A stretch of DNA of 19,989 bases. Source: Candidatus Helarchaeota ASGARD archaeon Hel_GB_B (GTDB lineage Archaea > Asgardarchaeota > Lokiarchaeia > Helarchaeales > HEL-GB-B). Shown here piece after piece: positions 3,001 through 18,782 of the stretch. Location: assembly GCA_005191425.1 (NCBI GenBank), contig SUPR01000068.1:1-19989 (forward strand), in the 5' to 3' direction. Under the pieces are notes generated by a model that worked only from the letters and a program-made list of their open reading frames with translations, made no database searches and had not been told where the DNA came from. The position numbers and the translations under genes are program-made. Each line of letters starts with the position of its first letter. The stretch's first letter is position 1.

Positions 3001-3803
3001 TCATTCCAATAAATTTGAGCAGAATAAAGATCGGTAATATTATTATAAGTTAACCAACCCGATCCGCTTGGAGGATGATCTATAGAAGTCCTTACTAAAT
3101 CCAGGTCAGAATCAGAATATACTATTTGAATTCTTACATTAAAAGTTTGAGTTTCAAATTTATACTGATATGGACTTGACTCGACCACATTCATAGTGAT
3201 CCTATACTCGGCATGGTCATGAATTTCAGCAGTATTTATTTCATAATACCAAGTAATCCCGTCAGGTTTAAGTGAAAAATAATCAATTGTCCCATTCAAA
3301 TAGTCAATTTTCACCTCAACATTAGTCCATGGAGATGTCCCATTTTTAATATTAGCTTGTTCAAATTCGTCATAAAATTGAACTGTAATATTATAATCAT
3401 TTATTTCTAATGTTTCAGCATAATAGGTTGTCAGGTTCCATTTTTGTTGAGGAGTAATTACATCTGCAGAGACATCTACAGTCTGATTAATAAAATATGG
3501 CCTTATTATTGAGTCAAAATATTTCTTGAATAAATAACAAGTAACATTTTGTGGTCCGGCTTTTAAGGCAGAGGTGGGTAAGTTAATAGTATAATTTCCT
3601 TTATTCACATTCCTTCCTTCTGTATAACTTGTATAATTGACAAGGACATATGAAGTTGAATTATATTCGATATAAAAATGACCATTAGAAACAGCATTAG
3701 ATAATTGGTCAGACCATCTTGCCTTAAATGGTAAAAAGCTTGGTTGTAAATAGCTATTTCCATAATCAAAAGATTTATCAATATAAATAAATACATTAGT
3801 TTT
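3..3803 (-). repeat. Protein-level tandem repeat array (11 complete units plus the start of a 12th) inside the giant ORF
   Basis: Units share the pattern T-x-hydrophobic ... (W/Y)-x-x-x-x-x-hydrophobic-x-hydrophobic-x-Y-x-D ... (GNG)-x-Y-x-hydrophobic-x-hydrophobic-x-T ... G-x-Y ... hydrophobic-x-hydrophobic-x-(I/V)-x-x-(R/I). Examples: STQLIRP..PWNDSFTLEILYQD, YTQVIYD..KWGKNATLNVYLKD, QMGNGWYNITLDTS, YQGNGWYELRI, HYGNGVYNVTVNTS. The units are diverged at DNA level. Confidence 0.85.
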
Positions 3804-6137
3804 TCTCCAAACTTCGAAATTTATATAATTAAATCCTATTTTTGAAACAGAACTCCCGCTTATACTATTGTTCCACCGTACTATTGACCTATAAGTTCCA
3901 ATTGAATTAGGAGCGACCAGCCAAGTCATATTATAGACACTACTGGTAATTGAAGAATAGAAATCATGTCGAATTTCAATATTAACTTGCGTCTGGTTAA
4001 CATCTTCAATTTGAGCAACAGTACGGCTAGCCATTCCTTGAGTCCAAGGATATGAAGTATTAATGAAAATTTGAGTCCTTGAATTATTATTTGGATAAAA
4101 TTTATTAGAATCAGTCCAAGTCCCGGCTGTTTCAATCTGACTTTTAATATCATATATGTAATTTGGTGCATATAATCTAATTTTCCATAGCCCATCATTA
4201 TTTTCAGTGAAATATTTATAGAATACCATTGTATTATTCTGATTAACATCACTTGGTTTTATAACTAGCATATAATTAGTTTGATTTTTAATTTCATAAT
4301 TTACTGCCGATCCTGGTATCCAAATTCTGTTAGGATCCCAATCATTTGGAACAGTTACATTAAAACTAAATGATGTAAGATTTGCTAATGAAGTTGGGTC
4401 AAAATAAATCCACCATGTTACTCTAGTCATATCTTGGGAAGAAATAGTAAAATTACTTAACGCACTTGCTACTTTTGTTTCATTTAATCTTAAATATGCG
4501 TTAAAAGTAACTGAAAAACTTGAAGATATTGAAAAATCAAATCTATGTTTATTACTATTCCAATTATCATTAATAGTGGCAGTTCCACTCCCATAAGACC
4601 CCGTGATTTGATATGCAGCTGATCCGTGTGAAACATCTAGCACATTCATATTTACATTTGAGTCATCTGGATCTAATTCACAGACCATATTTATCGTAAT
4701 ATTATCAAATCTAATTCCCATTGGATATTTAGAATTAAAATCAAGTCCAGCTGTTGTAACCCCAAGTCTGATCGTAAGATTAGTCGTAGTACCTAATGTA
4801 CTTAAATCGCCTAAAATGTTAATTGGATCAGCTTGTCTCCATGTTGTTTCGATATTAGACAAAAATTGATACGTCCCTTGATAAGATATATAATGTTTTG
4901 AACCCCACTTACCATTGCTCCCAACTTGTGCCCATATATATGAAGATGCCCCGCCGGATATTGTATTATTTCCTCTAAAAGCAAAATTTAGATTACTTGA
5001 AATTATACTGCGACCTTTAAGAGAATTGGAAGTAGTTTGATTCCAAAATGCTTCAGACCCAGTATTTATTTTCTTTTGATAGATAATAGTAAGATTAACA
5101 TAATTAAACCACCCATTCGCATCAATATATCCATTTTGGTCGCCCAACCATGTTGATCTTCCAGCAATTTGTAGTCCACATTCAAAACCAAATGCAAGGG
5201 TCCAACTCGATCCACTTTGTAAAATAGATGTAACATCTTTATTGGAAACAGTTTTACTTTGGGCATTTGGCCATGTATATGAAGTCCCATCAAATTCTAC
5301 GCTATTAATATAAACATGCCCAATTGCAAAACCTGATGGGTTCTGCGGATTTTGACCCCAACTATGGGCAGTATCAAATATCCTATAACTATAACTTAAA
5401 TAAGCTTTAGTGACTATTATATCGGTCGTTGATAAAGTTATTGTTTGATTCCATTTAACAGAGGGACCTTCGGATACTGAATTGCCATCAGGAGCATATA
5501 CATCATGATAAAAGTACGCAACACCCCCGTCTCCATGAGAAGTATCATGGCCAACAGTATCAGGAGTGTCCTCATCAGGATCGCCATATGCACTTGTCCC
5601 GGTATACTGATTCCAGCCGTTGAGATTAGAAGTAAAATCAATGTTTTGATTTGCTTTTGTACTCTCCCATCCTTTAATTATTATCTCTAAACTATCACCC
5701 CCACCACCAGGTGTATTGTCTGCATTAAAATTAAAATCAATATCGCTGGTATCCCCGGATTTAGAATTATACCAATTTAAATGCGTTGTAATCATTGGAT
5801 TATCAACCCATTGACCACTTTCTCTTAAATTTGATATCGAAAGATACGTTTCATATCCGGTCCAAGTCGCTGGCACAGTCCCATATATAGAATCACTAGG
5901 AGTTAAACCATTAAAAGAGCTCGTATTAAGTGCCTGTTCACCTATTTTAATATTTATCCCGGGCCCAGAATACTCTAGATCAGTATACGAATAATCATTA
6001 TTTATCGTAAATGGGTTATTAACTACTTGATAATTATTACCAATAAAATTTAAATTATAACTAATAATAGAAAAGGAAAATTCAATTAAAATAAAAAAAA
6101 AGATCATTAAGTAAAAATTATTTTTTCTTTTAATCAT
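3..6137 (-). CDS. Giant secreted/cell-surface repeat protein, 3'-partial (2045 codons in window, no stop before the edge); N-terminal jelly-roll-like region followed by at least 11 tandem Ig-like beta-sandwich repeats
   Basis: I read the minus-strand frame by hand from ATG (6135-6137) to base 3 and found no stop codon. It starts MIKRKNNFYLMIFFFILIEFSFSIIS (basic residues then a hydrophobic stretch, signal-peptide-like) and has an AAGAGTGA SD-like site upstream. It is N/T/S/Y/I-rich with about 75 N-x-S/T sequons by manual count. Repeats of about 105-135 aa start near 3803. It is absent from the ORF track. Confidence 0.95.
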   Translation of the reverse strand, partial: MIKRKNNFYLMIFFFILIEFSFSIISYNLNFIGNNYQVVNNPFTINNDYSYTDLEYSGPGINIKIGEQALNTSSFNGLTPSDSIYGTVPATWTGYETYLSISNLRESGQWVDNPMITTHLNWYNSKSGDTSDIDFNFNADNTPGGGGDSLEIIIKGWESTKANQNIDFTSNLNGWNQYTGTSAYGDPDEDTPDTVGHDTSHGDGGVAYFYHDVYAPDGNSVSEGPSVKWNQTITLSTTDIIVTKAYLSYSYRIFDTAHSWGQNPQNPSGFAIGHVYINSVEFDGTSYTWPNAQSKTVSNKDVTSILQSGSSWTLAFGFECGLQIAGRSTWLGDQNGYIDANGWFNYVNLTIIYQKKINTGSEAFWNQTTSNSLKGRSIISSNLNFAFRGNNTISGGASSYIWAQVGSNGKWGSKHYISYQGTYQFLSNIETTWRQADPINILGDLSTLGTTTNLTIRLGVTTAGLDFNSKYPMGIRFDNITINMVCELDPDDSNVNMNVLDVSHGSAAYQITGSYGSGTATINDNWNSNKHRFDFSISSSFSVTFNAYLRLNETKVASALSNFTISSQDMTRVTWWIYFDPTSLANLTSFSFNVTVPNDWDPNRIWIPGSAVNYEIKNQTNYMLVIKPSDVNQNNTMVFYKYFTENNDGLWKIRLYAPNYIYDIKSQIETAGTWTDSNKFYPNNNSRTQIFINTSYPWTQGMASRTVAQIEDVNQTQVNIEIRHDFYSSITSSVYNMTWLVAPNSIGTYRSIVRWNNSISGSSVSKIGFNYINFEVWRKTNVFIYIDKSFDYGNSYLQPSFLPFKARWSDQLSNAVSNGHFYIEYNSTSYVLVNYTSYTEGRNVNKGNYTINLPTSALKAGPQNVTCYLFKKYFDSIIRPYFINQTVDVSADVITPQQKWNLTTYYAETLEINDYNITVQFYDEFEQANIKNGTSPWTNVEVKIDYLNGTIDYFSLKPDGITWYYEINTAEIHDHAEYRITMNVVESSPYQYKFETQTFNVRIQIVYSDSDLDLVRTSIDHPPSGSGWLTYNNITDLYSAQIYWNESFEVKVYFFNITSEIGVDNAKVNLTGWPDISTILDLNSIGGGFYKLDINANNEIIPGTYNLRINVSAPGYQSREIYLTLYILNRSTQLIRPTYSFAYVSIPWNDSFTLEILYQDTVNSPYLNLSGPQVSISVLEGGHASSLNWSLAGPFSNNTYKITFHGNISDLSEKHYYLSIKASKNNWTTRYMDFEVIITPIKTELIVDPSIISNHPRGNNKTISITYRDLDHTIDLTGNVEVNWSNDGNDYYSISNPLVSSYGYYYQIEINTSWTSIRTYYINITVSKPHYITKSYYVEVQIRPRYTQVIYDVPQIIKWGKNATLNVYLKDLDNNQILSPSVIYADDITINETQGVKLTYSQDGNGYLLDIDTRDISKWPVGRHQLNVTIYSAYGYYNSSTLIDIIIATRETNLIYLTPDIVPYLYNLTLKFRYTDQDNTSGASVGINNDTNPQIPWLTTYAGNVSISFQVFRDVGLTDEVSGLIYWIFSMKNQMGNGWYNITLDTSSLGLTGGYYAQINVSWISDSLYYNKSIIVPFNIRNITSLLEYIPPGSVKYVPGSFGIDFRYTNLDEGGSPISGAELNVTAIYDINDVNITSSFYYSSNYTVNYQGNGWYELRIFMGPNNLHEFGTYKVSVKINKTNYDSRTISNITFTIRRGYTQFTSPFAPASQIIDGLTNITINYIDAESGEGIVNSTGNVILRWNWLNASHPNILFVYGWNQSTSSWAIGAYSGDDGRYQFLINASTALGLVIGGKYYLTLNISAGSLVQSKELNITFRIQPQTSIMGVDYPIEVVWNVNATFNVTYTKLDGSVISDTTISLYCIDFGTYWNSSYWSYFHYGNGVYNVTVNTSLYAPPNSGYFTLRVDASSANYTDRSMNVIMRVRPIDTQVILTPPTATSYGELANITIKYWDTYYSSPISDVGTITDKIGVYINCTNIDPSYWNVYVGASPGYYILSINTTVFGSLSATGHLVQFYVKYTGEPYYQNWSGLSLNLIVQARNTE

Positions 6138-6142
6138 AAAAT

Positions 6143-6150
6143 TCACTCTT
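6143..6150 (-). promoter_or_regulatory. Shine-Dalgarno-like site (AAGAGTGA) of the giant ORF
   Basis: Lies 5 nt upstream of the ATG at 6137. The identical octamer precedes the ZIP gene. It resembles the GGAGGTGA complement of the archaeal 16S 3' end. Confidence 0.6.
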
Positions 6151-8047: not shown

Positions 8048-9610
8048 TTAAATGATTTTTCCTTTTCTATGTTTTAATTTTGTGTTTTTTGACTTTTTTT
8101 TATGATAAATTGCTTTTCTATAATAATTAATTGAAATCGTAAGGTTAATAATTAAAATAATTAGTCCAATAATCATAAAAATGATAATATAAATAATTAG
8201 TTGGTCTGAGATTTGTGGGAAACTGTTTGGGTCTAGAGGATTTGTCCCGATTGAGACTTCCAGTCCGTCAGAGTATCCATCACCATCAGTATCACTATTA
8301 TTTACATTTGTTTTATAAATATATTCCAAATAATTAGTTAGCCCATCATTGTCGATGTCCTGAAGAGCGTCTAACTTATTAGTAGGGGCAAGTCCATTTA
8401 AAACTTCCCAACCATCAGGCATTCTATCAGAATCAGTATCAGAGTTGTTCGGTAATGTATTATATATATATATTTCATCCCAATCATTTAGCCCATCAAA
8501 ATCAGTATCAAGTTTTAATGGATCCGAATGATAAATATGAATTTCATCTCCGTCAGATAGGTTATCGTTATCGGTGTCATTATTGCAAGGATTTGTTTGG
8601 TAAAAGATTTCCTCTCCATCTAATAAATTATCATTATCTGTGTCCGGGTCGGAAGGATCAGTAAAATATATTTCAATTTCTTCATAATCAGAAAGATTAT
8701 CATGGTCACTATCTAAATCATTTATTTTATTATTATGATAGATATTATACTCACTTGCCTCTTCATAAATTCCTCTATAGTTATCAATGATCCAATTATT
8801 ACTAATTGTATTATTATAGGCTAAATTTAAATGAACCCCATATTCGGTGTTATTATTGATAGTACTATTCAAAATTTGATTATAAAAAGAGAATAATATA
8901 ATATTTATACCAGATTTATTGTTTAAATTTATAGTGCTGTTAAAAATAACTGAGTAATTGGATTGGACAATTTCTATACCATAATAATCATTCAATTTAA
9001 TAGTATTATTAAAAAAATTATTTTTAATAGAAGATTCGACTTTTATTCCGCTTCTAAAATTATTAGAAATGAAATTATTTGAAAAATTGTTATTATTTGA
9101 ATTAGAAATTATCTTAATCCCATAATATTTATTTGAAAAAAAATTGTTTGCATAGATTTCTGAATGTGTTAATTGAAATCCATATAATCCGCTATTGCTA
9201 AATAGAACAGTATTATTATAAATTATTGCATTTGTAACATTTGAGAGAGACAAGCCATAAGTCCCATTATATAAGGTACAATTTCTAAGAATAAAATATT
9301 TATTGGTATTTCTAATTCGAATACAGAATCCATTATTACCGTTAATAGTTTTGTTTTCAATAACAAATGGTGAAATTTTAGTCCCATTTCCATAATCTGC
9401 TACCATTTCAAGCTGGGAATTGTTATCTACATCAATAAATGATTTTTTAAAAATAATAAATTTTTTATCAAAACTACTTTTAATAATTCCACTTTTTCTG
9501 ACCAATGAAAAATTAACATAAAAAATGTAAATTGATGATAATAAACATAAAAAAATGAAAAAGACCCTTAAATTCTTTATTTTCAATAGTTTAAGATTCA
9601 TTTTTTTCAT
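8048..9610 (-). CDS. Membrane-anchored secreted protein: right-handed parallel beta-helix (NosD/PbH1-like) + 7 TSP3-like Ca-binding repeats + C-terminal TM helix and basic tail
   Basis: N-terminal hydrophobic segment (VFFIFLCLLSSIYIFYVNF) is followed by GNGTKISPFVIEN, then Asn-ladder repeats (GI.I.S.NN.I.NN.I..N). DxDxDxLxDxxE repeats come next, then LIIYIIIFMIIGLIILIINLTISI and KKKSKNTKLKHRKGK. ATG 9610 is preferred over the track's TTG 9649, which overlaps cooC. Confidence 0.85.
   Translation of the reverse strand: MKKMNLKLLKIKNLRVFFIFLCLLSSIYIFYVNFSLVRKSGIIKSSFDKKFIIFKKSFIDVDNNSQLEMVADYGNGTKISPFVIENKTINGNNGFCIRIRNTNKYFILRNCTLYNGTYGLSLSNVTNAIIYNNTVLFSNSGLYGFQLTHSEIYANNFFSNKYYGIKIISNSNNNNFSNNFISNNFRSGIKVESSIKNNFFNNTIKLNDYYGIEIVQSNYSVIFNSTINLNNKSGINIILFSFYNQILNSTINNNTEYGVHLNLAYNNTISNNWIIDNYRGIYEEASEYNIYHNNKINDLDSDHDNLSDYEEIEIYFTDPSDPDTDNDNLLDGEEIFYQTNPCNNDTDNDNLSDGDEIHIYHSDPLKLDTDFDGLNDWDEIYIYNTLPNNSDTDSDRMPDGWEVLNGLAPTNKLDALQDIDNDGLTNYLEYIYKTNVNNSDTDGDGYSDGLEVSIGTNPLDPNSFPQISDQLIIYIIIFMIIGLIILIINLTISINYYRKAIYHKKKSKNTKLKHRKGKII
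8222..8713 (-). repeat. Seven coding DxDxD(G/N)-type calcium-binding repeats (bacterial TSP3-like)
   Basis: DSDHDNLSDYEE, DTDNDNLLDGEE, DTDNDNLSDGDE, DTDFDGLNDWDE, DTDSDRMPDGWE, DIDNDGLTNYLE, DTDGDGYSDGLE; most are followed by (T/S)(D/N)P. Confidence 0.85.
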
Positions 9611-9632
9611 ATTAATTAACTTTTTATAATAT

Positions 9633-10427
9633 TTAAACGCGTTTTTCAATATTCATAATAATTTGTTCATATAAATATTTAATTACTTCAATACCTTTGG
9701 AATTTTCGTCATTATCTATAGGAGCAATTGATTTTAAATCTGCTTCTTTTATTTTTTGGTCTAAAGGAATATTAGATAGAACTTCAATTCCAAGTTCTTT
9801 AGCTTTATTTTTTATAAAATCCAGTTCAAAATCGGATGAGATTTTATTACCTACTAAAAAGATTTTTTTAATGCCGAGTTCAGAGGCTAAATCTCTTATG
9901 GTTTTTGCAAGGACAATAGACCGATTTCCAGGTTCTACAACTATAATCATAGCGTCAACTGCTTTGGCGGTACCTCTTCCTAGGTGCTCAATGCCAGCGA
10001 CCATGTCTAGAATAACAACGTCCTTAGTTTCCAAGATGAGGTGGTATATTAATGCCCGAATTAATGCGTTATCGGGGCACATACAACCACTTGCTGGTGT
10101 TTGGACAGTACCCATTACTAATAATCTGACTCCATCAGGGCCTATTACTTGGAATTTATCGGGTAAGTCATCGACCTTGGGGTTTAGTACAAATACACCA
10201 CCTTGAGTCCCAGCGCGTTCTTCAATTATTTTCTTTTGCTCAGAAATTGGCTTGATTTTCTTTAAATCCTCGTTAGAAATTCCTATAGCTGTTGATAGGT
10301 TCATACTTGGATCCGCATCTATTGCAATAACCCTATAACCATTTCTTGCAAATAGCCTTGAAAGAGTCCCTGCTATTGTGGTCTTTCCAACACCACCTTT
10401 TCCAACAATCGCAATTTTATAGCCCAT
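9633..10427 (-). CDS. cooC: CooC/AcsF-family nickel-insertion ATPase (CO dehydrogenase/acetyl-CoA synthase maturation factor; MinD/SIMIBI class)
   Basis: Deviant Walker A GKGGVGKTT, IDADPSMNL, Ni-binding CxC motif in GCMCP, DMVAGIEHLGRGTAKAVD and VGNK. A GTGAT SD-like site lies upstream. Confidence 0.93.
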   Translation of the reverse strand: MGYKIAIVGKGGVGKTTIAGTLSRLFARNGYRVIAIDADPSMNLSTAIGISNEDLKKIKPISEQKKIIEERAGTQGGVFVLNPKVDDLPDKFQVIGPDGVRLLVMGTVQTPASGCMCPDNALIRALIYHLILETKDVVILDMVAGIEHLGRGTAKAVDAMIIVVEPGNRSIVLAKTIRDLASELGIKKIFLVGNKISSDFELDFIKNKAKELGIEVLSNIPLDQKIKEADLKSIAPIDNDENSKGIEVIKYLYEQIIMNIEKRV

Positions 10428-11202: not shown

Positions 11203-12546
11203 ATGGAAAAAAGTTTTAAGGCAAGCATTGGTTTTGATAATACACAAAATGAGCGAGGAAAATTAGAGGAGAACTATACTAAATTCAAATCTATAATTAT
11301 AGATGAAGGTCATGAAATCAATTCAAAATTTGAATTTCCAATTTCACTTGGTCAATTGTCGAAGTATGACATAGTATTTTTTGCATGCCCAGATAGGTCG
11401 AAATTTCGGGAATTTGAAATAGAACAAATTATTAAATATGTAAAAAATGGTGGTAATGTAGTTTTATTAAGTAATGCTGGTGGAGATAAAGGGTTAGGTA
11501 CAAACCTAAATGAAATTGGTAAAGAATTTGGGATTACATGCAATAATGACCAGATTTGTGATGATGAACAAAATTATGGAATAAGGACACTTCCAATATC
11601 TCAGAATTTTAATTTACACCCAATAACGACTGAGATCGAACTTTTATTATTACCAGGTGCTTGTAGCTTAAATGTATCTAAAGATGCAACGGTAATAGTA
11701 TCTTCAGGAGAACATGCCGAACCACCAAATGCACCAGTAATCGCTGTTGCGGAAAAAGGACTTGGTAAATTTGTATTTTTTGGGACTTATGAATTGTTTA
11801 GAGATAATATTAGGGGGGGTATTCAAGTTATTCAGCACCGAATTTTATTAAAAAATCTATTAAATTGGCTATTTGAAGATATGGAAAAGAAAAGACTAAT
11901 ACTTAATATTCAAACTTTGGCTAACGCCGTTGTTCTGAAACTTAAAAAGAAAGAGAAAAAGGAAAAAGGTATTGAACCAATTAAAATTGTTTCTACCAAA
12001 CCAGTTATAAGGACTCCTGATGGTAAAATTTCCCCAGAGTCCATGCTTGACCAGATTATTATATCTTTAAAACAACTTCAGGAAATTAGTGGAAATTTAA
12101 ATATTATTGATAGAAACATAACAGAATTTGCTCGCGAGATTAAACTGTTAAGAAATGATATTACTTCAATTCCAAGCGAAATGGACAATCTTACAAAAGA
12201 AATTTCAAATATATCACTATTATTAAAAGATTTACAAGAAGAAATAAAGGAAATCAAAATTGCTAAAAGTCTTGAAAAAGCTATAGAAAATTTTCAAGAT
12301 TTTAAATTAAATTTCGAGTCTCAAATAGACATAATTTTAAATAAAAACATTAACCCAATTAAATTGGAAATTTCTGAAATAAGTGAGTCCGTTAATTTGA
12401 AAGACAAAGAAATAGAAAAAATCAAAGAAGATTTAGTTTATATTAAAGAAAATTTAGTCTTAAAAAAAGATGTTGAAGAAATAAAAATAGAATTAATTGA
12501 TAGTATCAAAAGTTTTTTTGAAAATTTAAAAAATCAGGGCCAATAG
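11203..12546 (+). CDS. IFT52/GldG-like (GIFT, class-I GATase-like fold) domain protein with C-terminal coiled coil; no signal peptide
   Basis: Residues about 5-223 read IGFDNTQNE...LSKYDIVFFACPDRSKFREFEIEQIIKYVKNGGNVVLLSNAGG...TNLNEIGKEFGITCNNDQI...HPIT...GKFVFFG...LLKNLLNWL. This matches the remembered IFT52 N-terminal pattern (P..KF...E.E.(I/L).KY...GG.V.......GG......TN.N.....(E/Y)GI..NND). A K/P-rich linker and heptad-rich C-terminal ~170 aa follow. Confidence 0.75.
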   Translation: MEKSFKASIGFDNTQNERGKLEENYTKFKSIIIDEGHEINSKFEFPISLGQLSKYDIVFFACPDRSKFREFEIEQIIKYVKNGGNVVLLSNAGGDKGLGTNLNEIGKEFGITCNNDQICDDEQNYGIRTLPISQNFNLHPITTEIELLLLPGACSLNVSKDATVIVSSGEHAEPPNAPVIAVAEKGLGKFVFFGTYELFRDNIRGGIQVIQHRILLKNLLNWLFEDMEKKRLILNIQTLANAVVLKLKKKEKKEKGIEPIKIVSTKPVIRTPDGKISPESMLDQIIISLKQLQEISGNLNIIDRNITEFAREIKLLRNDITSIPSEMDNLTKEISNISLLLKDLQEEIKEIKIAKSLEKAIENFQDFKLNFESQIDIILNKNINPIKLEISEISESVNLKDKEIEKIKEDLVYIKENLVLKKDVEEIKIELIDSIKSFFENLKNQGQ

Positions 12547-12640: not shown

Positions 12641-12651
12641 ATTTTTATATA
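12641..12651 (+). promoter_or_regulatory. Candidate TATA box (TTTTTATATA) for the coiled-coil-profilin gene
   Basis: About 35-45 nt upstream of ATG 12686. A GGAGA SD-like site lies just before the ATG, and T-runs follow the upstream stop codon. Weak because the background is AT-rich. Confidence 0.35.
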
Positions 12652-12685
12652 CCTTTCACTAATAATTATTTCTGGAGAGATAGTA

Positions 12686-15199
12686 ATGTCTATGAGTAGC
12701 CTTGAAAAAGAGATTGAAAAATTAAAAGCAGATATTGATTTCAGAAATAAAAGAATTGAAAAACTAGAATTAGAAGTTGCAAAAAATAAGACGGATGCCA
12801 GATTAAAAGACGAAAAAATTGAAAAGCAACAAATAGAAATAAAAAATAAATTGGAAGAAATTGAGAGAAAAGACGCAGAAATTAAAACATTAAAAGAAAA
12901 ACTGGAATCACTAGCTACTGACCAACTTGAACAAGAACTAAATTCATTAAAAACACTCAGTCAAAATCAAAAAAAGGAAATTGATTCTTTAAAAATTGAA
13001 AATGAGAAATTAATATCTGAACTTGATAAAGCAAATAAAAAAATTGATGAATTAAATTCAACTTTAGAATCTCAAAAAGAAAATATCGCGTCATTAGAAT
13101 CTCAATTTTCTGATGCTCAATCTAAAATTAAAGAAAAAGAGAAAGAATTAATCGCAACGAATATTAAAAATTCTAAGCTGGAAGATTCGATTAAAAATCT
13201 AAAAAATTTATTAGACGCCAGTAATGATGAAAAAAACAAGTTATATGAAAATTTAGAGAATATTAATAAAAAAGTTTCAGAACTTGAAAAACAAATACAG
13301 GAAAAAGATGAAAAAATAGAAAAAATTAAAAATGAATTAGAACTTACAACTCAAATTTCCGATAATAATAAACAAATGGTCGATGATTATAAAAAACAAA
13401 TTATTGAATTAAATAATAAACTCACCAAATATATTAACGATTCGGAGGGAAAAAGCCTTAAAATTGACAATTTACAAAAAGAATTAGACAAATTACATGC
13501 AGGAGTCGACCTTTATGAGTCCAAAATTAAAGAATTGAAAGACAAAATTAATGAAAAAGAAGAAGAGATTCAAAAATTAAAATCAAGTAGTAGTAGCCCA
13601 TTAGAAGATAATTTAAAAGTGGAAGAGTTAAACAGACGTATTAAAATTTTAGAACTTGAACTTAAGGATACCAAGAAGGAGTTAGAGGAAGAGAAAAGTA
13701 AAAAAAGAGTGAAAGAATCTGAAAAAGCAGTTATATCTCCTAAAGATATTTCACTTGAGTTTGATATTGAGAAAATTTTGATCGGTAATCTCACAGATTC
13801 AGATAAAGAACAAATAACAGAACAATTTAAAAAGCAACAAAATTTGATTAAAGAATTTATGACGGTAAATAATAAACAAAAACTACAAATTGAAAAATTA
13901 GAAAATAAAATTTCCAAAAGAGACGATGAAATAGAAGATATTAAGAAAAAAAATAAAGAATTAGAAAAAGAAATTAAAAAATTATCTAAAGAATTAAAGA
14001 AAAAATCCCATGTAATTAAAGAATTGAAAAGTGAAGTTGATCTAGAAGAAGCAATTGACCAGATTGATAAAATTGGAGAATATGAAAGCAGATTTGAAGA
14101 AATAAATAAATTAAAAGGTTTATTAGAAAAAGCAAATATTACAATAGAGGGCCAAAAAAATATTATTAAAGACCTAGAAAATACAGTCGCTACATTAAAA
14201 AAAGATACAAATGTACAAGCAGCACAAAAACTCAGAGAATCATATGAACAATATATAATGAACCTCCAAAAAGAAGCGTATGATAATAAATATCAATTAG
14301 AAAATGCATTAAAAAGAATTGAAGATTTGGAATTTGAATTAGAAAAATATAATAAATTATTTAGTCAATACGAATCTCAAATTGAAAAAATTGGTAAGAT
14401 TAGTGAGGGCGTCTCTTCAGATATTCCCTTGGATGAATATACTTCAATTCCAAGTAGCCAGCCTACGGATGAAATAAATTATAATGAATATGAACAAGGA
14501 AAACCAGCTTTTGTCCCTAGTGAAACAAATTTAAAACCCTCAGAATTATTTGGGACTCGACCAGCTCCAAATAAAGTAATCGAGCGAGCGAATGAATCCA
14601 CAAATGAATTATTGGGTAGTAAATTAATAGGTGAATCGGACGACCTAAACCAAAATAGAGGATTATTAACTCCTGCTAATATATCACAAGATAGTAATTT
14701 ACTTACACCAGATGACCTAAAAAGTGATAATAAAGTAAAGGATGGAGAATTATTAGGAAGTTCAAGCAGTGGTGGATTATTAACGGGAGAAACAGAACTA
14801 AAATTACTACCAGAAGAGGGTAAATTTAGCTTATTAAATAAAATAATTAATCAATTTATTAAATATTGTAACAATGTTGACGATTCGGCATTATGTATGT
14901 TTGATGGACTTGTCTTATCTCAAACTTTTGATTGGGACATTTCTGCAGATATAAAAAGAGTAATAAATGAATGGAAAGAGGAATCTACCTCAATTTTTTT
15001 GAAAGGGACTAAATATGCAACTTTAAAAGTGGGAGATGATGTATTAGTAGCCACCAGTACACAGGGAAAAGGACATCTACTATGTATCTCAATTAATGAA
15101 GATTTGTTTATAATATTTGTTTTAGATAAAACTGCAGACCCACTGACTATTTTTGATGATTTTGAACCCTATAATGAGCAATTACGAAGTTTATTATAA
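12686..15199 (+). CDS. 837-aa protein: about 570-aa coiled coil + acidic low-complexity linker + C-terminal Asgard-type profilin domain
   Basis: Residues 5-570 are E/K/L-rich heptads with no Walker motifs. Residues 573-713 form an S/D/E/P/G-rich linker. Residues 714-837 carry DGLVLSQTFDWDISADI, TSIFLKGTKY, VATSTQGKGHLL and EPYNEQLRSLL, matching remembered Loki profilin motifs (DG.I..QT.NW.IS.D, TS..IQG.KY, TN..GKGH, Y...L..L(I/L)-COOH). Confidence 0.85.
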   Translation: MSMSSLEKEIEKLKADIDFRNKRIEKLELEVAKNKTDARLKDEKIEKQQIEIKNKLEEIERKDAEIKTLKEKLESLATDQLEQELNSLKTLSQNQKKEIDSLKIENEKLISELDKANKKIDELNSTLESQKENIASLESQFSDAQSKIKEKEKELIATNIKNSKLEDSIKNLKNLLDASNDEKNKLYENLENINKKVSELEKQIQEKDEKIEKIKNELELTTQISDNNKQMVDDYKKQIIELNNKLTKYINDSEGKSLKIDNLQKELDKLHAGVDLYESKIKELKDKINEKEEEIQKLKSSSSSPLEDNLKVEELNRRIKILELELKDTKKELEEEKSKKRVKESEKAVISPKDISLEFDIEKILIGNLTDSDKEQITEQFKKQQNLIKEFMTVNNKQKLQIEKLENKISKRDDEIEDIKKKNKELEKEIKKLSKELKKKSHVIKELKSEVDLEEAIDQIDKIGEYESRFEEINKLKGLLEKANITIEGQKNIIKDLENTVATLKKDTNVQAAQKLRESYEQYIMNLQKEAYDNKYQLENALKRIEDLEFELEKYNKLFSQYESQIEKIGKISEGVSSDIPLDEYTSIPSSQPTDEINYNEYEQGKPAFVPSETNLKPSELFGTRPAPNKVIERANESTNELLGSKLIGESDDLNQNRGLLTPANISQDSNLLTPDDLKSDNKVKDGELLGSSSSGGLLTGETELKLLPEEGKFSLLNKIINQFIKYCNNVDDSALCMFDGLVLSQTFDWDISADIKRVINEWKEESTSIFLKGTKYATLKVGDDVLVATSTQGKGHLLCISINEDLFIIFVLDKTADPLTIFDDFEPYNEQLRSLL

Positions 15200-15244: not shown

Positions 15245-17485
15245 ATGATACCACTAACTTCTCAAAAATTTTCAGAAGTTTTTGGTGTAAATTCATCTAT
15301 TTATTATGAATATAAAAATGAAATTTCAGATTTATTTAGAACTAACAATAATTATATAGAAATAATGAGTGATAAAGAACAATGGACCAAAAAATTTAGT
15401 TTATTATATAAAAAATCAGAATTGAATGAAGATCTATTCATCAAACATTCATATATTTCCTTATTGATTAAAATTATTATTGCAAAAAAGGTTCTTTTAT
15501 TTAAGAAATGGACAGACCTTGAAAATTTTAAAAATACTCTCGATGAAAAAAAAATAGACATTTTTAAAGATGAATTATTTAAGTGGAATATACAAATCAA
15601 TAAAATAAATAAAATGATTTTTAATGAAATCGATAAATACAATTTTAAATCAATGGACCTCTTTAATTTATTATATCAAGAAATGTTTACTATTAAAACT
15701 AGACGTAATCTTGGAGAATATTATACACCGCCTGAATTGGCAAAATTAATGGTAGATGACAGCTATAAACTTGGGGATTATGTATTGGACCCAAATTGTG
15801 GGAGCGGTACGATTCTTATTGAAATTATATTAAAAATTATAAGATCAGATATTCCTGACACTGACAAAATTAAATATTTAAATCGGATCTATGGGTTTGA
15901 TATAAATCCAATAGCAATTTTAATTGTTAAAGCAAATTTATTGTTAATTTATTATTTAAACAATTTAAAAGATACCTCAATTAATATTTTTCTTTTAAAT
16001 CCATTGTTTGAAAAAGAGTACAAAGGAGCGCAATTTCCTAAATTTGATTTAATTATAGGAAATCCACCATGGATTGTCCTCAATAGTATTCATTCTTATG
16101 AATATAAAGAAAAAATAAGAATGAAAGCATTAGAACTTGGGATAATAAGGGGTGGTAAATACTCAACATCAATAGAAATCAGCTCACTTATTTTTGAAGA
16201 TGTTTCACAATATTTTTTGAAGAATGGAGGAATTATATTCTTTATTATGACAAATGGGGTTATGAATGGCGATCAACATTCAAAATTCCGCACTTTTAAA
16301 AATTTCAAAGAGATAACCATTTGGAAATTTACGGAGGATATATTTAGAATTAATAGCATCTGTTTGAAAGCAAAAAAAGGTTTTAGACCAATTCTTGAGC
16401 GATTAAAAATAAATGTAATTGAATTATTTTGTATTAAAAAAGATTCTAAGTGGGAATTCAAGTTCAAAAGACCAGAAATTTATGTTCCATACAATTATAA
16501 TACAATTAATGAAAATTCAAAAATTATAAGAAGATTTATCCCATTAAAAATATTAGAATTATTATTACCCCAAAAAAAATCAGAATATTCCAGTAAATTC
16601 TATCAAGGCGCGTCATTAATACCCAGAAATTTAATTTTTATTAATATAGATCTTGAAATTAATGAAAAACTTGTTAAAATATCACCCTATATGGATTTTC
16701 AAGCCAAATATCCCTGGAATAAAAAACCTTTTGACAACGCAATTATAGAAAAAAAGTACATTTTTAATGTGGCAAAAAGTACTGACCTCGTCCCATTTAA
16801 GTTGTTAACTACCCATTACGTTGTTTTACCTATAAATAAAAAAGATTTCAAGTATGAACCAAAATTATTGAATAAATATGCACAAATCCATTTTAATTTC
16901 CTGAATAATTATTATAAAGAAAATATAAAAGAGGGAACTAAAATTGGGAAATTGTGGAATGAAATTAATCATTTTAATAAATTAATTAATCCAAATCAAA
17001 AAAGAAAAATTAAAATAATTTTTAATGGAATCGGTAGCATTGTCAAATCAGCTGTTTTAACAAATTATGAATTAATTGATACGAGTCTTTATTATTATTC
17101 GGCAAATAATTTGGACGAAGCTTATTATCTTATGGCAGTATTAAATTCGCCTTCGATAACTTATTCTATCCAATATTTTGGGAGTATTGGAAAAAGCGGA
17201 ACCTTGCGAAATATTCATAAACACCCATTAAACATTCCAATTCCTCTATACAACCCAAATAACGAATTATGTACCAAAATATCAAATCTTGGAAAAAAAT
17301 TAGAACAATTGGTCCAAAGTTTGATCAATGAATGGATAAAGGAAGGTAATAATAAAACATTTATCAAATCACAAATAAAATTAAGACCAAGGGCAATTCA
17401 ACTATATATATTAGAAAATAAATTATTCCAAAAACAATTAAAATACTTAGATAATTTAACAAAAAGTTTAATTTTTGAAGGATAA
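15245..17485 (+). CDS. N6-adenine DNA methyltransferase (gamma class, Eco57I/TaqI-like) with fused C-terminal target-recognition region; no nuclease domain recognised
   Basis: GEYYTP (motif X), VLDPNCGSG (SAM-binding motif I), GFDINP, FDLIIGNPPW (catalytic motif IV). About 350 aa of C-terminal region ending in a YYY..LNS..IP.P pattern typical of TRD-bearing MTases. Confidence 0.88.
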   Translation: MIPLTSQKFSEVFGVNSSIYYEYKNEISDLFRTNNNYIEIMSDKEQWTKKFSLLYKKSELNEDLFIKHSYISLLIKIIIAKKVLLFKKWTDLENFKNTLDEKKIDIFKDELFKWNIQINKINKMIFNEIDKYNFKSMDLFNLLYQEMFTIKTRRNLGEYYTPPELAKLMVDDSYKLGDYVLDPNCGSGTILIEIILKIIRSDIPDTDKIKYLNRIYGFDINPIAILIVKANLLLIYYLNNLKDTSINIFLLNPLFEKEYKGAQFPKFDLIIGNPPWIVLNSIHSYEYKEKIRMKALELGIIRGGKYSTSIEISSLIFEDVSQYFLKNGGIIFFIMTNGVMNGDQHSKFRTFKNFKEITIWKFTEDIFRINSICLKAKKGFRPILERLKINVIELFCIKKDSKWEFKFKRPEIYVPYNYNTINENSKIIRRFIPLKILELLLPQKKSEYSSKFYQGASLIPRNLIFINIDLEINEKLVKISPYMDFQAKYPWNKKPFDNAIIEKKYIFNVAKSTDLVPFKLLTTHYVVLPINKKDFKYEPKLLNKYAQIHFNFLNNYYKENIKEGTKIGKLWNEINHFNKLINPNQKRKIKIIFNGIGSIVKSAVLTNYELIDTSLYYYSANNLDEAYYLMAVLNSPSITYSIQYFGSIGKSGTLRNIHKHPLNIPIPLYNPNNELCTKISNLGKKLEQLVQSLINEWIKEGNNKTFIKSQIKLRPRAIQLYILENKLFQKQLKYLDNLTKSLIFEG

Positions 17486-17582: not shown

Positions 17583-18005
17583 CTAATAATGAAATATGTT
17601 ATGTCCACACGGACAAACCCTTGGATGCTCCAATTTTGTACATATTTTATCAATTATTTTCTCTGATATATAAATGTCTATTTTAGAAGCTTCTTTGCAT
17701 GCCTCTTCACAGGTTAATCCCAATTCATTTGAAAAAAAATATTCTAAAATGCGATGTTTTCGCATTAAGATTTGGCCTTGTTTAATCCCATGAGGAGTTA
17801 ACTTGATACCTTTGTATTTTTTATATTCAACAAGTCCCAACATTGATAGACTTTGAAAATGCTCCGTGACAGTAGAAGGGTGTACATTGAATTTTTCAGC
17901 AAAAAATTTTGTTGAAAACCACTTATTAGGATTTTGATCATAATTTCTAATAATCGGTTTTAAATATTTGCTAATAGTCTGTTCTTTCATATTAATATTT
18001 GGCAA
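17583..18005 (-). CDS. DtxR/MntR-family metal-dependent transcriptional regulator (no FeoA/SH3 domain)
   Basis: wHTH segment AEKFNVHPSTVTEHFQSLSMLGLVEYKKYKGIKLT..G, then RKHRILEYFF..ELG and C-terminal HP..CPCGH. Starts 21 nt after the ZIP stop codon. TTG start with GGA upstream; alternative ATG at 17990. Confidence 0.9.
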   Translation of the reverse strand: MPNINMKEQTISKYLKPIIRNYDQNPNKWFSTKFFAEKFNVHPSTVTEHFQSLSMLGLVEYKKYKGIKLTPHGIKQGQILMRKHRILEYFFSNELGLTCEEACKEASKIDIYISEKIIDKICTKLEHPRVCPCGHNIFHY

Positions 18006-18026
18006 TTTTAATTCCTTTAATTAGCT

Positions 18027-18782
18027 TTAAACAAATATTACTTTAAAAAACCACATTAAAAATATTCCGATTATAAATAGGATTGAAATAAATGTAGTCT
18101 TTTTTCCACTATTTTCCTTCTTTAATTCGGGAATGAGGTCAGCTGCTGCAATATATATAAATCCACCCGCAGAAAATGCTAATAAGTATGGAGAAATGGA
18201 TAGGAGCGAATATAATAAATAATATCCGAAAATTCCACCACCAATAGCTGTTAACGCTGTTAGAAAATTGAAAAATAAAGCTCGTTTTTTGGAAAAGCCG
18301 CCATAAATGAGTACCCCAAAATCGCCAATCTCTTGAGGGATCTCATGAGCTATAACTAAAATTGTAGCAACAAAACCTAATTGAAAGGATGATATAAAGG
18401 AAACAGCAATTACCAGCCCATCTGTAAAATTGTGAATACCATCACCAATAAGATTCAACCATTTGAATGAATGTTGCTCGCAAATATGATCTTTTTCTAC
18501 ATTATGGCATTGATGATAATCCAATAATTTTTCAAATATAAAAAAACAAATAAAACCGATGATAAGGATTATGTATATGTTTAATGAATTTATTTTCTCC
18601 ACAGCTTCGGGTAATAGATGTAAAAATCCTCCGCCGATTAGTGCACCTGCAGCAAAACTAACTAAATAAAAAACAATTTTGTTTAACGTTTTGTCATTAA
18701 TGCTTAAAGTTATTACTCCGACTAATGAAATTAAACTAACAATAAAATTACTCAATACAATATACAATAAGGTAAAATCCAT
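18027..18782 (-). CDS. ZIP-family (ZupT-like) divalent metal transporter
   Basis: SFAAGALIGGGFLHLLPEA, His-containing loop HQCHNVEKDHICEQH, TM4 GDGIHNFTDG, TM5 AHEIPQEIGDFGVL, GGFIYIA..DLIPEL. Confidence 0.93.
   Translation of the reverse strand: MDFTLLYIVLSNFIVSLISLVGVITLSINDKTLNKIVFYLVSFAAGALIGGGFLHLLPEAVEKINSLNIYIILIIGFICFFIFEKLLDYHQCHNVEKDHICEQHSFKWLNLIGDGIHNFTDGLVIAVSFISSFQLGFVATILVIAHEIPQEIGDFGVLIYGGFSKKRALFFNFLTALTAIGGGIFGYYLLYSLLSISPYLLAFSAGGFIYIAAADLIPELKKENSGKKTTFISILFIIGIFLMWFFKVIFV

Follow-up and report, generated by a model that had tools for sequence, protein, structure and literature searches.

The question raised by this locus is whether an Asgard archaeon encodes a profilin that is covalently attached to a long coiled coil, and what such a protein could be for. 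Asgard archaea possess actin, profilins, and gelsolins, and scaffolds of the formin, Ena/VASP, or WASP type have, to our knowledge, not been recognized in them. Eukaryotic profilin almost always occurs as a free protein. The gene in question (P0001) occupies positions 12686..15199 (+) of the window, i.e., the whole analyzed stretch of 19,989 nucleotides of the Candidatus Helarchaeota archaeon Hel_GB_B, and encodes 837 amino acids (coordinates include the stop codon). Its product consists of three parts, namely a coiled coil, a linker, and a profilin domain, and the fusion is kept in six assemblies together with conserved neighboring genes.

The reading frame extends from an ATG to a TAA that is directly followed by a second TAA, with zero internal stops. 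Given the base composition of the window (GC 27.5%), 837 open codons would occur by chance with p ~10^-32.7, and the GC content at codon positions 1, 2, and 3 (41, 23, and 17%) follows a pattern that fits a coding frame. Residue 714 begins at nucleotide 14825, and the profilin motif series quoted in the preliminary description was found in the 837-aa frame. The 837-codon frame bears out the claim made there that these motifs are in frame with a heptad-rich N-terminus, without a stop in between. A Shine-Dalgarno-like element, GGAG, was read from the sequence 8 nt ahead of the ATG (12674..12677, +), and a TATA-like box, TTTATATA, was located at 12644-12651 (+), a weak signal as the DNA is so AT-rich. 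A T-rich run follows the stop codon of the gene upstream. A separate promoter may serve the coiled-coil-profilin gene, and the T-rich run may be the terminator of the upstream gene.

As the source is a metagenome-assembled genome of 182 contigs with 4.9% contamination, the fusion of coiled coil and profilin could be an artifact of mis-assembly, of a missed frameshift or stop codon, or of two merged genes. The same architecture was looked for in other genomes, as the preliminary description had proposed, and was found in five other assemblies, in orthologues of 770-853 aa. These full-length, collinear proteins are P0002 (843 aa, 62% identity), G305 (853 aa), G294 (796 aa), G304 (802 aa), and P0006 (770 aa). 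The architecture is uninterrupted in all five independent assemblies at 27-68% identity, the junction of linker and profilin included. The fusion is therefore not an assembly artifact, an explanation that is effectively refuted and to which we assign a negligible probability. It is further disfavored by the position of the only methionine near the domain, M739, which lies past the first helix, so that initiation at this codon would produce an incomplete domain. Orthologues of the other family have a methionine at the equivalent place.

The six full-length proteins, collinear from N- to C-terminus, are distributed over two families of one order. A word-indexed protein search limited to 460-1465 aa returned one orthologue only, and the family was recovered only when 1.84 billion representatives were scanned exhaustively with HMMER. 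Among 106 further genomes of the class (93 of family f3, 10 of f4, 2 of f31, and 1 of f32), a profile of the C-terminal part of the rod, the linker, and the profilin gave no full-length match. The coiled-coil-profilin is thus not a lone oddity but forms a small family that is conserved together with its gene neighbors. Because it is limited to two families of one order, its function is not general to Asgard archaea. Besides an actin (446 bits; C118:27048-28157), the Hel_GB_B genome encodes two profilins that are free (144 and 123 aa), and the coiled-coil-profilin is therefore an extra, specialized copy.

The C-terminal residues 710-837 (14813..15196, +) were assigned to profilin by sequence search, profile search, AF2 modeling, and structural alignment. 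The phmmer matches among PDB sequences included the profilins of Thor (7PBH, E 3.9e-11), Odin (5ZZA, 4e-8), and Loki (5ZZB, 2.6e-7, and 5YED, 1.4e-6). A profile of 32 relatives matched the Thor, Odin, and Loki profilins with E-values of 6e-36 to 9e-26, the Heimdall profilin with 3.6e-12, and plant profilins with about 1e-3. The Pfam Profilin model (PF00235) scored 18.6-21.2 bits on the domain, which is under its gathering cut-off of 25, and for this reason all members of the family are deposited as 'hypothetical protein'. It was the only Pfam model matching residues 700-837 at E<=1, and no Robl_LC7 or longin match was obtained.

The AF2 model of the domain (pLDDT 92.7) shows the order of elements H-E-E-h-E-E-E-E-E-H, with seven strands and a central helix of 9 residues. 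All top Foldseek matches of this model were profilins, and Asgard profilins were aligned by VIA-align with Z 16.5-17.4 and an rmsd of 1.8-2.2 Å over 119-127 residues. The top ranks in both programs were taken by Odin and Loki profilins crystallized with actin (E 7.6e-10, Z 17.4), and Odin profilin was aligned over 119/119 residues (Z 17.4, rmsd 1.8 Å). In the profilin fold, the N- and C-terminal helices lie on one face of a seven-stranded sheet, and a 3-strand motif replaces half of the central helix of Roadblock (PMC10933270). The domain model has this topology as judged by AF2, Foldseek, and VIA-align. Roadblock and longin, named as competing identities in the preliminary description, both scored worse than profilin. 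PDB Roadblock chains reached E 0.55-0.92 with the domain profile, without a significant stretch, and Roadblock/MglB structures were aligned with Z 11.8-13.1 over 107-113 residues, fewer than Asgard profilins. A Roadblock/LC7 or longin identity was rejected on these scores, and on the presence of seven strands and a short helix instead of five strands and a long dimerization helix. On the basis of sequence and model, residues 710-837 are a bona fide Asgard-type profilin domain.

The fused domain has the same fold as the solved Asgard profilins (5ZZA, 5YED/5YEE, 5ZZB, 7PBH, and 6YRR), belongs to the same family at 24% identity, and has the W, G.KY, and ATN..G.GH motifs in common with them. Whereas the solved proteins are free chains of 119-148 residues, extended at the N-terminus by no more than a short stretch (Thor, Heimdall), the fused domain forms the last 128 of 837 residues, and its ligand binding is putative. 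The small single-domain size, which is typical of the family but not strictly defining, is not seen here, the domain being residues 710-837 of an 837-aa protein. The loop insertion of Loki profilin, which the preliminary description had presumed absent, is indeed lacking, with a gap of 8 residues relative to Loki profilin-2 just ahead of the TSIFLKGTKY segment.

Alignment of the orthologues revealed residues 774-803 (15005..15094, +), GTKYATLKV..VATSTQGKGHLLC, as the most conserved segment. It covers the three central strands, and the invariant residues cluster in it. The segment is 90% identical to its counterpart in P0002; between the two families it reaches 57-63%, compared to 26-29% for the rod. 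Within the family, identity amounts to 84% for the profilin part, 63% for the rod, and 40% for the linker. Sequence comparison indicates that the profilin part is under the strongest purifying selection. The 3-strand motif equivalent to residues 774-803 contacts actin in 5YEE (PMC10933270). Since the strands through which profilin touches actin in the solved Asgard complexes are retained, the fused domain may bind actin monomers as well, 1:1 and at the barbed face. Binding of polyproline and/or phosphoinositides varies among Asgard profilins. The linker is attached at the N-terminal helix of the domain. In eukaryotic profilins, the N-terminal helix forms half of the polyproline site.

Residues 1-575 (12686..14410, +) constitute a segmented coiled-coil rod according to heptad score and AF2 helices. 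The heptad periodicity of residues 1-588 was 0.458, compared to 0.255 ± 0.020 in shuffled sequences (z~10). The a positions are occupied by Ile in 25 of 63 cases and by four Asn, and the d positions by Leu in 26 of 63. A core of this a/d composition fits the dimer rule (Harbury et al., 1993). Judging by these core statistics, the rod is probably a dimeric, two-stranded parallel coiled coil. In the full-length AF2 model, long helices are followed by disorder at residues 572-709 and by a compact domain at 710-836. The helices of the rod comprise residues 3-221, 232-242, 280-297, 307-339, 371-449, 453-506, and 508-571. The longest unbroken one, residues 3-221 (219 residues; 12692..13348, +; pLDDT ~76-86), would span about 32 nm if straight. 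The heptad register and the AF2 helices are interrupted near residues 222-279, 298-306, 340-370, 450-452, and 507, and residues 340-370 (13703..13795, +) are a non-heptad insert with a low-confidence, non-helical prediction. As the full-length model is a monomer with pLDDT 66.5 and pTM 0.26, its helix breaks and rod geometry are uncertain.

The N-terminal coiled coil of ~570 residues put forward in the preliminary description therefore holds with respect to strong heptad periodicity, which extends over ~575 residues, but not with respect to an unbroken course. The single rod of ~80 nm derived from it should be taken as a maximum rather than as the shape to expect, since breaks divide the rod into at least 5-6 helices and a non-heptad insert lies among them. 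Comparison of the two families revealed several conserved islands in the rod. The best-conserved patch, LKSEVDLEEAID (residues 447-458; 14024..14059, +), is 69% conserved between them, and further islands comprise residues 21-31, 75-88, 275-282, and 523-537 (nt 14252-14296), all on the + strand.

The rod resembles tropomyosin, the arms of SMC/Rad50, and crescentin in its heptad-rich helices dominated by K/E/L/I, and weak matches to the coiled-coil parts of these proteins were obtained. It differs from them in that ATPase heads and family-specific motifs are lacking and that scores are far under the cut-offs. All coiled-coil matches of the full protein in Pfam and NCBIfam were sub-threshold, and ATG16, Fez1, Tropomyosin, SMC, and Rad50 were discarded as coiled-coil noise. 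Scores relative to the family cut-offs (in bits) were 61.6 versus 567 for SMC, 41 versus 1087 for Rad50, 19.2 versus 38.6 for Tropomyosin, 10.1 versus 40 for Filament, and 10 versus 100 for Rod_CreS. Membership in the SMC/Rad50, tropomyosin, intermediate filament (IF), or crescentin families was rejected, as no score exceeded its cut-off and no diagnostic heads or consensus motifs were present.

Rod and profilin are connected by residues 576-709 (14411..14812, +), a linker rich in S, P, G, and E that is predicted to be disordered from its composition and AF2 pLDDT values of 28-44. A pattern count revealed five xLL[G/T] motifs in the linker (14606-14617, 14660-14671, 14696-14707, 14747-14758, and 14774-14785, all +), compared to 0.77 expected. 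Of the 9 family members, 7 show enrichment of this conserved motif. Under the stricter pattern [DEGSNPKTAQR]LL[GT] in a polar context, four copies are retained out of the five. At least three strict copies within 150 aa occur in a single one of the 2891 ORFs of the genome, the coiled-coil-profilin ORF. As the genome-wide cluster scan returned this ORF alone, the idea that xLL[GT] marks a network of cytoskeletal proteins was unsupported. A polyproline run was not found in the linker, which has 11 Pro in 140 residues. An 853-aa actin-fold protein contains only a few copies of xLL[GT].

The gene directly upstream (11203..12546, +) encodes a GIFT-domain protein of 447 aa (Pfam IFT52_GIFT, 6.9e-19) with a C-terminal coiled coil at residues ~270-447. 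Orthologues with 44-73% identity immediately precede the coiled-coil-profilin gene in the same orientation in L007, G305, G294, G304, and G301, and a GIFT-coiled-coil gene takes this place in 6/6 loci for which upstream DNA was assembled. Of 111 genomes of the class, 103 encode the GIFT protein, in most cases with no coiled-coil-profilin partner, and the GIFT protein hence does not depend on it. In the f3 and f31 loci, no coiled-coil-profilin was found beside the GIFT gene, and the adjoining gene is unrelated. A MinD/ParA-type P-loop ATPase of 264 aa is encoded at 9633..10427 (-), with a Pfam CbiA match of 3.9e-20 and a sub-threshold match to NCBIfam minD_arch. In the window's own family, its gene is oriented divergently. 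Orthologues with 59-76% identity occur in the same neighborhood in L007, G294, G304, and G301, compared to 29-30% for the next paralogue in the genome. Based on gene order, the GIFT-coiled-coil protein is a candidate partner and the ATPase a candidate positioning factor of the coiled-coil-profilin, gene neighborhood being a weak sign of physical interaction.

The reading that we favor, and regard as fairly probable, is that the gene encodes a scaffold-tethered profilin, in which a coiled coil carries a profilin head on a tether of ~135 residues and actin is delivered at an anchored site. The rod would dimerize and present two profilin heads, each of which would bind one actin monomer. The point of fusion, the N-terminal helix, would lie on the face opposite the actin-binding strands and leave the actin face free. 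The conserved islands of the rod would anchor the protein to a cellular site, the best anchor candidates being the GIFT-coiled-coil protein encoded next to it and the ATPase of MinD/ParA type. Polymerization-competent profilin-actin could be concentrated or held at this site. Such a protein would be a covalently wired counterpart of the eukaryotic arrangement, in which free profilin binds to formin FH1 or Ena/VASP scaffolds rich in proline, and it is a concrete, clonable candidate for the spatial control of Asgard actin assembly.

In eukaryotes, formin FH1 and Ena/VASP scaffolds recruit profilin-actin, and VASP tetramerizes by a coiled coil. The proposed likeness lies in an oligomeric scaffold with a long disordered region that would hold several profilin-actin units near the growth site. 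The difference is that profilin is bound non-covalently to polyproline in eukaryotes, whereas it is covalently attached in the coiled-coil-profilin, in which Pfam revealed no FH2, EVH1/EVH2, or WH2 domain and no polyproline tract was found. The likeness is not one of homology. Given actin binding and anchoring, it would be a functional analogy at most, because the linker is devoid of polyproline. A further-reaching proposal, which we hold to be unlikely, is that of a primitive site-specific actin-assembly factor: a dimer positioned by the GIFT protein and the ATPase would feed tethered profilin-actin to barbed ends, and the xLL[G/T] motifs would be a new class of ligands for actin, profilin, or a partner. 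If true, this factor would be an archaeal functional counterpart of the formin-FH1/VASP-type elongation machinery, in a lineage from which homologues of formin, VASP, or WASP are not known.

Two other explanations assign the central role to the rod or to a different ligand. The rod may itself be cytoskeletal, of the IF, crescentin, or tropomyosin type, with the profilin anchoring an actin monomer or a barbed end, so that the protein would serve as a cross-linker or organizer. Sub-threshold Pfam matches to Tropomyosin (E 9e-4), Filament, and Rod_CreS point in this direction, as do matches of the orthologues (a weak one to Rod_CreS in P0002, and Rod_CreS and Filament in G294). The arrangement in segments and linkers is like that of IF proteins, and the conserved islands could be assembly interfaces. 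However, all these matches are far under the family thresholds and typical of composition-driven coiled-coil hits, neither IF consensus motifs nor a head/tail organization was detected, and the rod evolves fast (26-29% identity between the families). We consider this explanation quite improbable.

Roadblock and longin relatives of profilin bind GTPases. The fused domain could be a profilin fold re-purposed for a non-actin ligand, and the protein a golgin-like tether or adaptor that has no relation to actin and, together with the GIFT protein and the ATPase, positions membranes or cargo. The profilin-specific seven-strand topology without the long central dimerization helix of Roadblock, and the insignificant sequence matches to Roadblock, speak against such a role. 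So does the sharing of G.KY... and ATN..G.GH with Odin and Loki profilins co-crystallized with actin, in what is the most constrained part of the protein. In its favor, profilin, Roadblock, and longin have a common core fold (PMC10933270), which is reflected in the Z of 11.8-13.1 for Roadblock/MglB, and the xLL[G/T] motif of the linker is not among the known profilin ligands. Moreover, related profilins follow winged-helix repeats (with NPRL3-HTH-like matches) or a Ras-family GTPase, and the fused profilins form a clade of their own, apart from most free profilins. On balance, a role of this kind appears distinctly unlikely.

The scaffold-tethered profilin is not the only profilin fusion in this class of archaea. 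The premise that Asgard profilins are essentially single-domain proteins fails here, as profilin domains joined to winged helices, to a Ras GTPase, or to a polyproline tract were found. The absence of a described coiled-coil-borne profilin, also assumed at the outset, agrees with the searchable literature: no coiled-coil, winged-helix, or GTPase fusion of profilin was found described in searchable full text, although an earlier mention elsewhere is possible. Among the 50 structural matches listed, the only multi-domain profilin chains were ExoY-proline-rich-domain-profilin (8BJH/8BJI), which differ in being artificial constructs for crystallography and cryo-EM and not natural architectures. 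Profilin is thus already a module of multi-domain proteins with coiled coils, winged-helix repeats, Ras GTPases, or polyproline in the archaeal relatives of eukaryotes. If the further-reaching proposal of a site-specific assembly factor is true, Lokiarchaeia wire profilin directly into positioning and, considering the winged-helix- and Ras-fused forms, signaling modules. Surveys of eukaryotic signature proteins have likely missed fused profilins because of their Pfam scores below the cut-off and their deposition as 'hypothetical protein'.

Winged-helix-repeat-profilin proteins of Lokiarchaeia were found in the genome itself (C118, 509 aa), in G294 (736 aa), and as P0007, P0011, and P0013. Like the coiled-coil-profilin, with which they occur in the same genomes, they have a C-terminal profilin after a disordered linker, and their profilin domains group as sister to those carried on coiled coils (support 93/97). 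They differ in three N-terminal TrmB/HTH_47-like winged helices and in a linker that is proline-rich and not LLG-bearing. The winged-helix-profilin of the same genome is located 5 kb from the actin gene.

The coiled-coil-profilin is encoded by one open reading frame of 837 codons (window 12686-15199, + strand). Its ATG start has a GGAG 8 nt upstream, and its TAA stop is directly followed by a second TAA. At the window's GC content of 27.5%, the chance of an open frame of 837 codons is ~10^-33, and the GC contents at the three codon positions (41/23/17%) follow the pattern of a coding frame. The protein consists of three parts: a rod (residues 1-575), a tether (576-709), and a profilin domain (710-837). 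The profilin motifs quoted in the preliminary description were found where it had placed them.

The sole domain-family match of the C-terminal domain was Pfam Profilin (21.2 bits, E 3e-4), under the gathering cut-off of 25. Among PDB sequences, the domain matched 7PBH (E 3.9e-11), a Thorarchaeota profilin (bioRxiv 10.1101/2021.08.06.455371), the Odin profilin 5ZZA (4e-8), and the Loki profilins 5ZZB/5YED (3e-7 to 1e-6). With a profile of 32 relatives, E-values were 6e-36 to 9e-26 for Thor, Odin, and Loki profilins, 3.6e-12 for the Heimdall profilin, ~1e-3 for plant profilins, and 0.55-0.92 for Roadblock chains. The domain model (pLDDT 92.7) shows seven strands together with a helix at each terminus and a short one in the centre. 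Foldseek ranked Odin and Loki profilins at the top (E 7.6e-10, rmsd 1.9 A), with the first Roadblock match at rank 23. In VIA-align, the Odin and Loki profilin crystal structures reached Z 16.5-17.4 and the Thor NMR model 12.0; eukaryotic profilins scored 12-14, and Roadblock/MglB 11.8-13.1 over fewer residues. The outcome named beforehand as refuting, a better score for Roadblock or longin than for profilin, did not occur; Roadblock scored worse by E-value, Foldseek rank, and Z. By its sequence, profile, Foldseek, and VIA-align matches, the domain is a bona fide profilin, as initially proposed; the insertion known as the Loki loop is absent from the domain, also as proposed.

The heptad periodicity of residues 1-588 exceeded shuffled controls by ~10 SD. 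Across the heptad segments, Ile predominates at a (25 of 63, in addition to 4 Asn) and Leu at d (26 of 63). This combination classically marks parallel two-stranded coiled coils, and by these established rules the rod would be such a coil. A single register runs from ~71 to 300, with breaks near 300 and 340-392 and between ~448 and 476. The full-length AF2 model, built with nine family members as input and of low overall confidence (pLDDT 66.5), places helices at 3-221, 232-242, 280-297, 307-339, 371-449, 453-506, and 508-571, leaves residues 572-709 unstructured (pLDDT 28-44), and folds 710-836 into a compact alpha/beta domain. Because both the predicted helices and the heptad register are interrupted, the rod is segmented and is not a single continuous helix of 80 nm, the upper length given in the preliminary description.

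The window's genome is a MAG of 3.54 Mb. One orthologue (843 aa), encoded in a Candidatus Helarchaeota MAG, shares 62% identity across the full length, and a genome of the same genus encodes an 853-aa orthologue. In the sister family, two genomes carry orthologues of 796 and 802 aa, while the gene of a third is cut at a contig end. The family further includes P0006, a 770-aa protein from Helarchaeota, and a number of partial proteins. Its members align collinearly between the N-terminal motif and the profilin domain, with the conserved rod islands (residues 21-31, 75-88, 275-282, 447-458, and 523-537) included. On this evidence, the fusion of profilin to a coiled coil is real and conserved. 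Within the family, identity was 84% in the profilin part, compared to 63% in the rod and 40% in the linker; across families, the three central profilin strands retained 57-63% identity, compared to 26-29% for the rod. The profilin part is thus the most constrained. The three-strand motif is the actin-contacting element in the Loki profilin-actin crystal (PMC10933270).

We searched 111 Lokiarchaeia genomes with a profile spanning the C-terminal rod, the linker, and the profilin. Full-length matches were obtained in 2/2 genomes of the window's family and 2/3 of the sister family, the third being truncated; in the other four families searched there were none (0/2, 0/93, 0/10, and 0/1 genomes). 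In a representative library of 1.84 billion proteins, the family amounts to only about six clusters. In the partial member P0009 (616 aa, Promethearchaeota MAG), the profilin domain is not at the end: Pro/Glu repeats of the TIPPEEE type and a lysine-rich tail come after it.

In each of the six loci with assembled upstream DNA, a same-strand gene for a GIFT-domain (IFT52/GldG-type, Pfam) protein with a C-terminal coiled coil (window 11203-12546, + strand) lies directly 5' of the coiled-coil-profilin gene. A quick full-text literature search returned no paper on such a protein in Asgard archaea. The GIFT protein occurs in 103 of the 111 genomes, mostly without this neighbour, so that the coiled-coil-profilin is a lineage-specific addition. 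A MinD/ParA-type P-loop ATPase (window 9633-10427, - strand) has orthologues near both genes in two families; these are 59-76% identical, with the next paralogue at 29-30%. The ATPase gene of the sister family runs in the same direction as the two genes, and an HDAC-like gene plus one or two small genes (~190 aa) lie in between; in the window's family, the ATPase gene has a divergent orientation.

Elsewhere in the window, a giant ORF (3-6146, - strand) runs off the end at >2048 aa and reaches 3939 aa in an orthologous contig. It matched no Pfam family at E<=1e-4 and keeps synteny with a 442-aa gene (no Pfam) and a beta-helix/TSP3-repeat gene (8048-9649). Directly downstream of the coiled-coil-profilin gene lies a 746-aa N6-adenine DNA methylase of the Eco57I (type IIG-like) kind (15245-17485, + strand); the closest orthologous contig keeps it in this place, but the sister family does not. 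A DtxR-type iron-dependent repressor (140 aa) beside a ZIP-family metal transporter (251 aa; 17583-18782, - strand) forms an ordinary metal-homeostasis pair.

Besides the coiled-coil-profilin, the genome encodes a second fused profilin, two free ones (144 and 123 aa), and an actin (446 bits). The nearest relatives of the coiled-coil-profilin's domain are C-terminal modules too. The second fused profilin (509 aa; G000:C118, L002 373..1902, + strand), 5 kb from the actin gene (G000:C118:27048-28157, - strand), combines three TrmB/HTH_47-like winged-helix repeats with a C-terminal profilin, joined by a proline-rich linker. This layout recurs in the sister-family genome G294 (736 aa) and in Lokiarchaeota P0013 (734 aa); among the Helarchaeales and Lokiarchaeota, orthologues span 501-744 aa. 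P0011 and P0013 carry an additional ~130-residue N-terminal domain, which in P0013 lies outside every Pfam match; P0013 also has an NPRL3-HTH-like match. On metagenome contigs, P0026 (390 aa) joins a Ras-family small GTPase (Pfam Ras 1e-31), a short coiled coil, a proline-rich stretch, and a profilin, and in P0023 (315 aa) a single chain holds a short coiled coil, a genuine polyproline run (PPLPPPSLHPPPPP), and a profilin. Maximum-likelihood phylogeny united the domains borne on coiled coils like that of the coiled-coil-profilin in one clade (95/83), sister to the winged-helix-borne profilins (joint clade 93/97). The domains of P0026 and P0023 formed a clade apart from these, among free profilins, so profilin fusion occurred at least twice. 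All fused profilins were deposited as hypothetical proteins.

A parallel dimer would present two profilin heads, each on a ~135-residue tether, and each head would bind one actin monomer, the fused N-terminal helix lying on the opposite face. The conserved islands may anchor the rod, with the GIFT-coiled-coil protein and the MinD/ParA ATPase as possible anchoring partners, and profilin-actin would thereby be concentrated at a defined place. Such an action would resemble the recruitment of profilin by formin FH1/VASP, but there is no homology to these proteins and no polyproline in the coiled-coil-profilin. Alternatively, the rod might be a filament-type structural element, or the profilin fold might have been re-purposed for a non-actin ligand within a tethering or positioning system.

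Among about 8.4 million papers and preprints searched in full text, key subscription papers excepted, the fused architecture was not found; the Asgard profilins described there are free, some with short N-terminal extensions. The coiled-coil-profilin is an undescribed, conserved multi-domain architecture carrying a bona fide profilin, and belongs to a broader, unrecognised modular use of profilin in Lokiarchaeia.

The linker contains five xLL[G/T/S/I] motifs, compared to 0.77 expected, and the motif is enriched in 7/9 family members. With a stricter pattern, such a cluster was found in one of 2891 genome ORFs, namely the coiled-coil-profilin. The motif is not known to have a described ligand. 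P0050 (853 aa; G000:C168, L006 67..2628, - strand) begins with an actin-fold domain (residues 3-376; Pfam Actin 6.8e-45), followed by a low-complexity tail of ~475 residues in which [LF]P[ST]FLK[IF]D-like motifs recur and LLG motifs occur a few times. It ends in KLL, and the coiled-coil-profilin in SLL.
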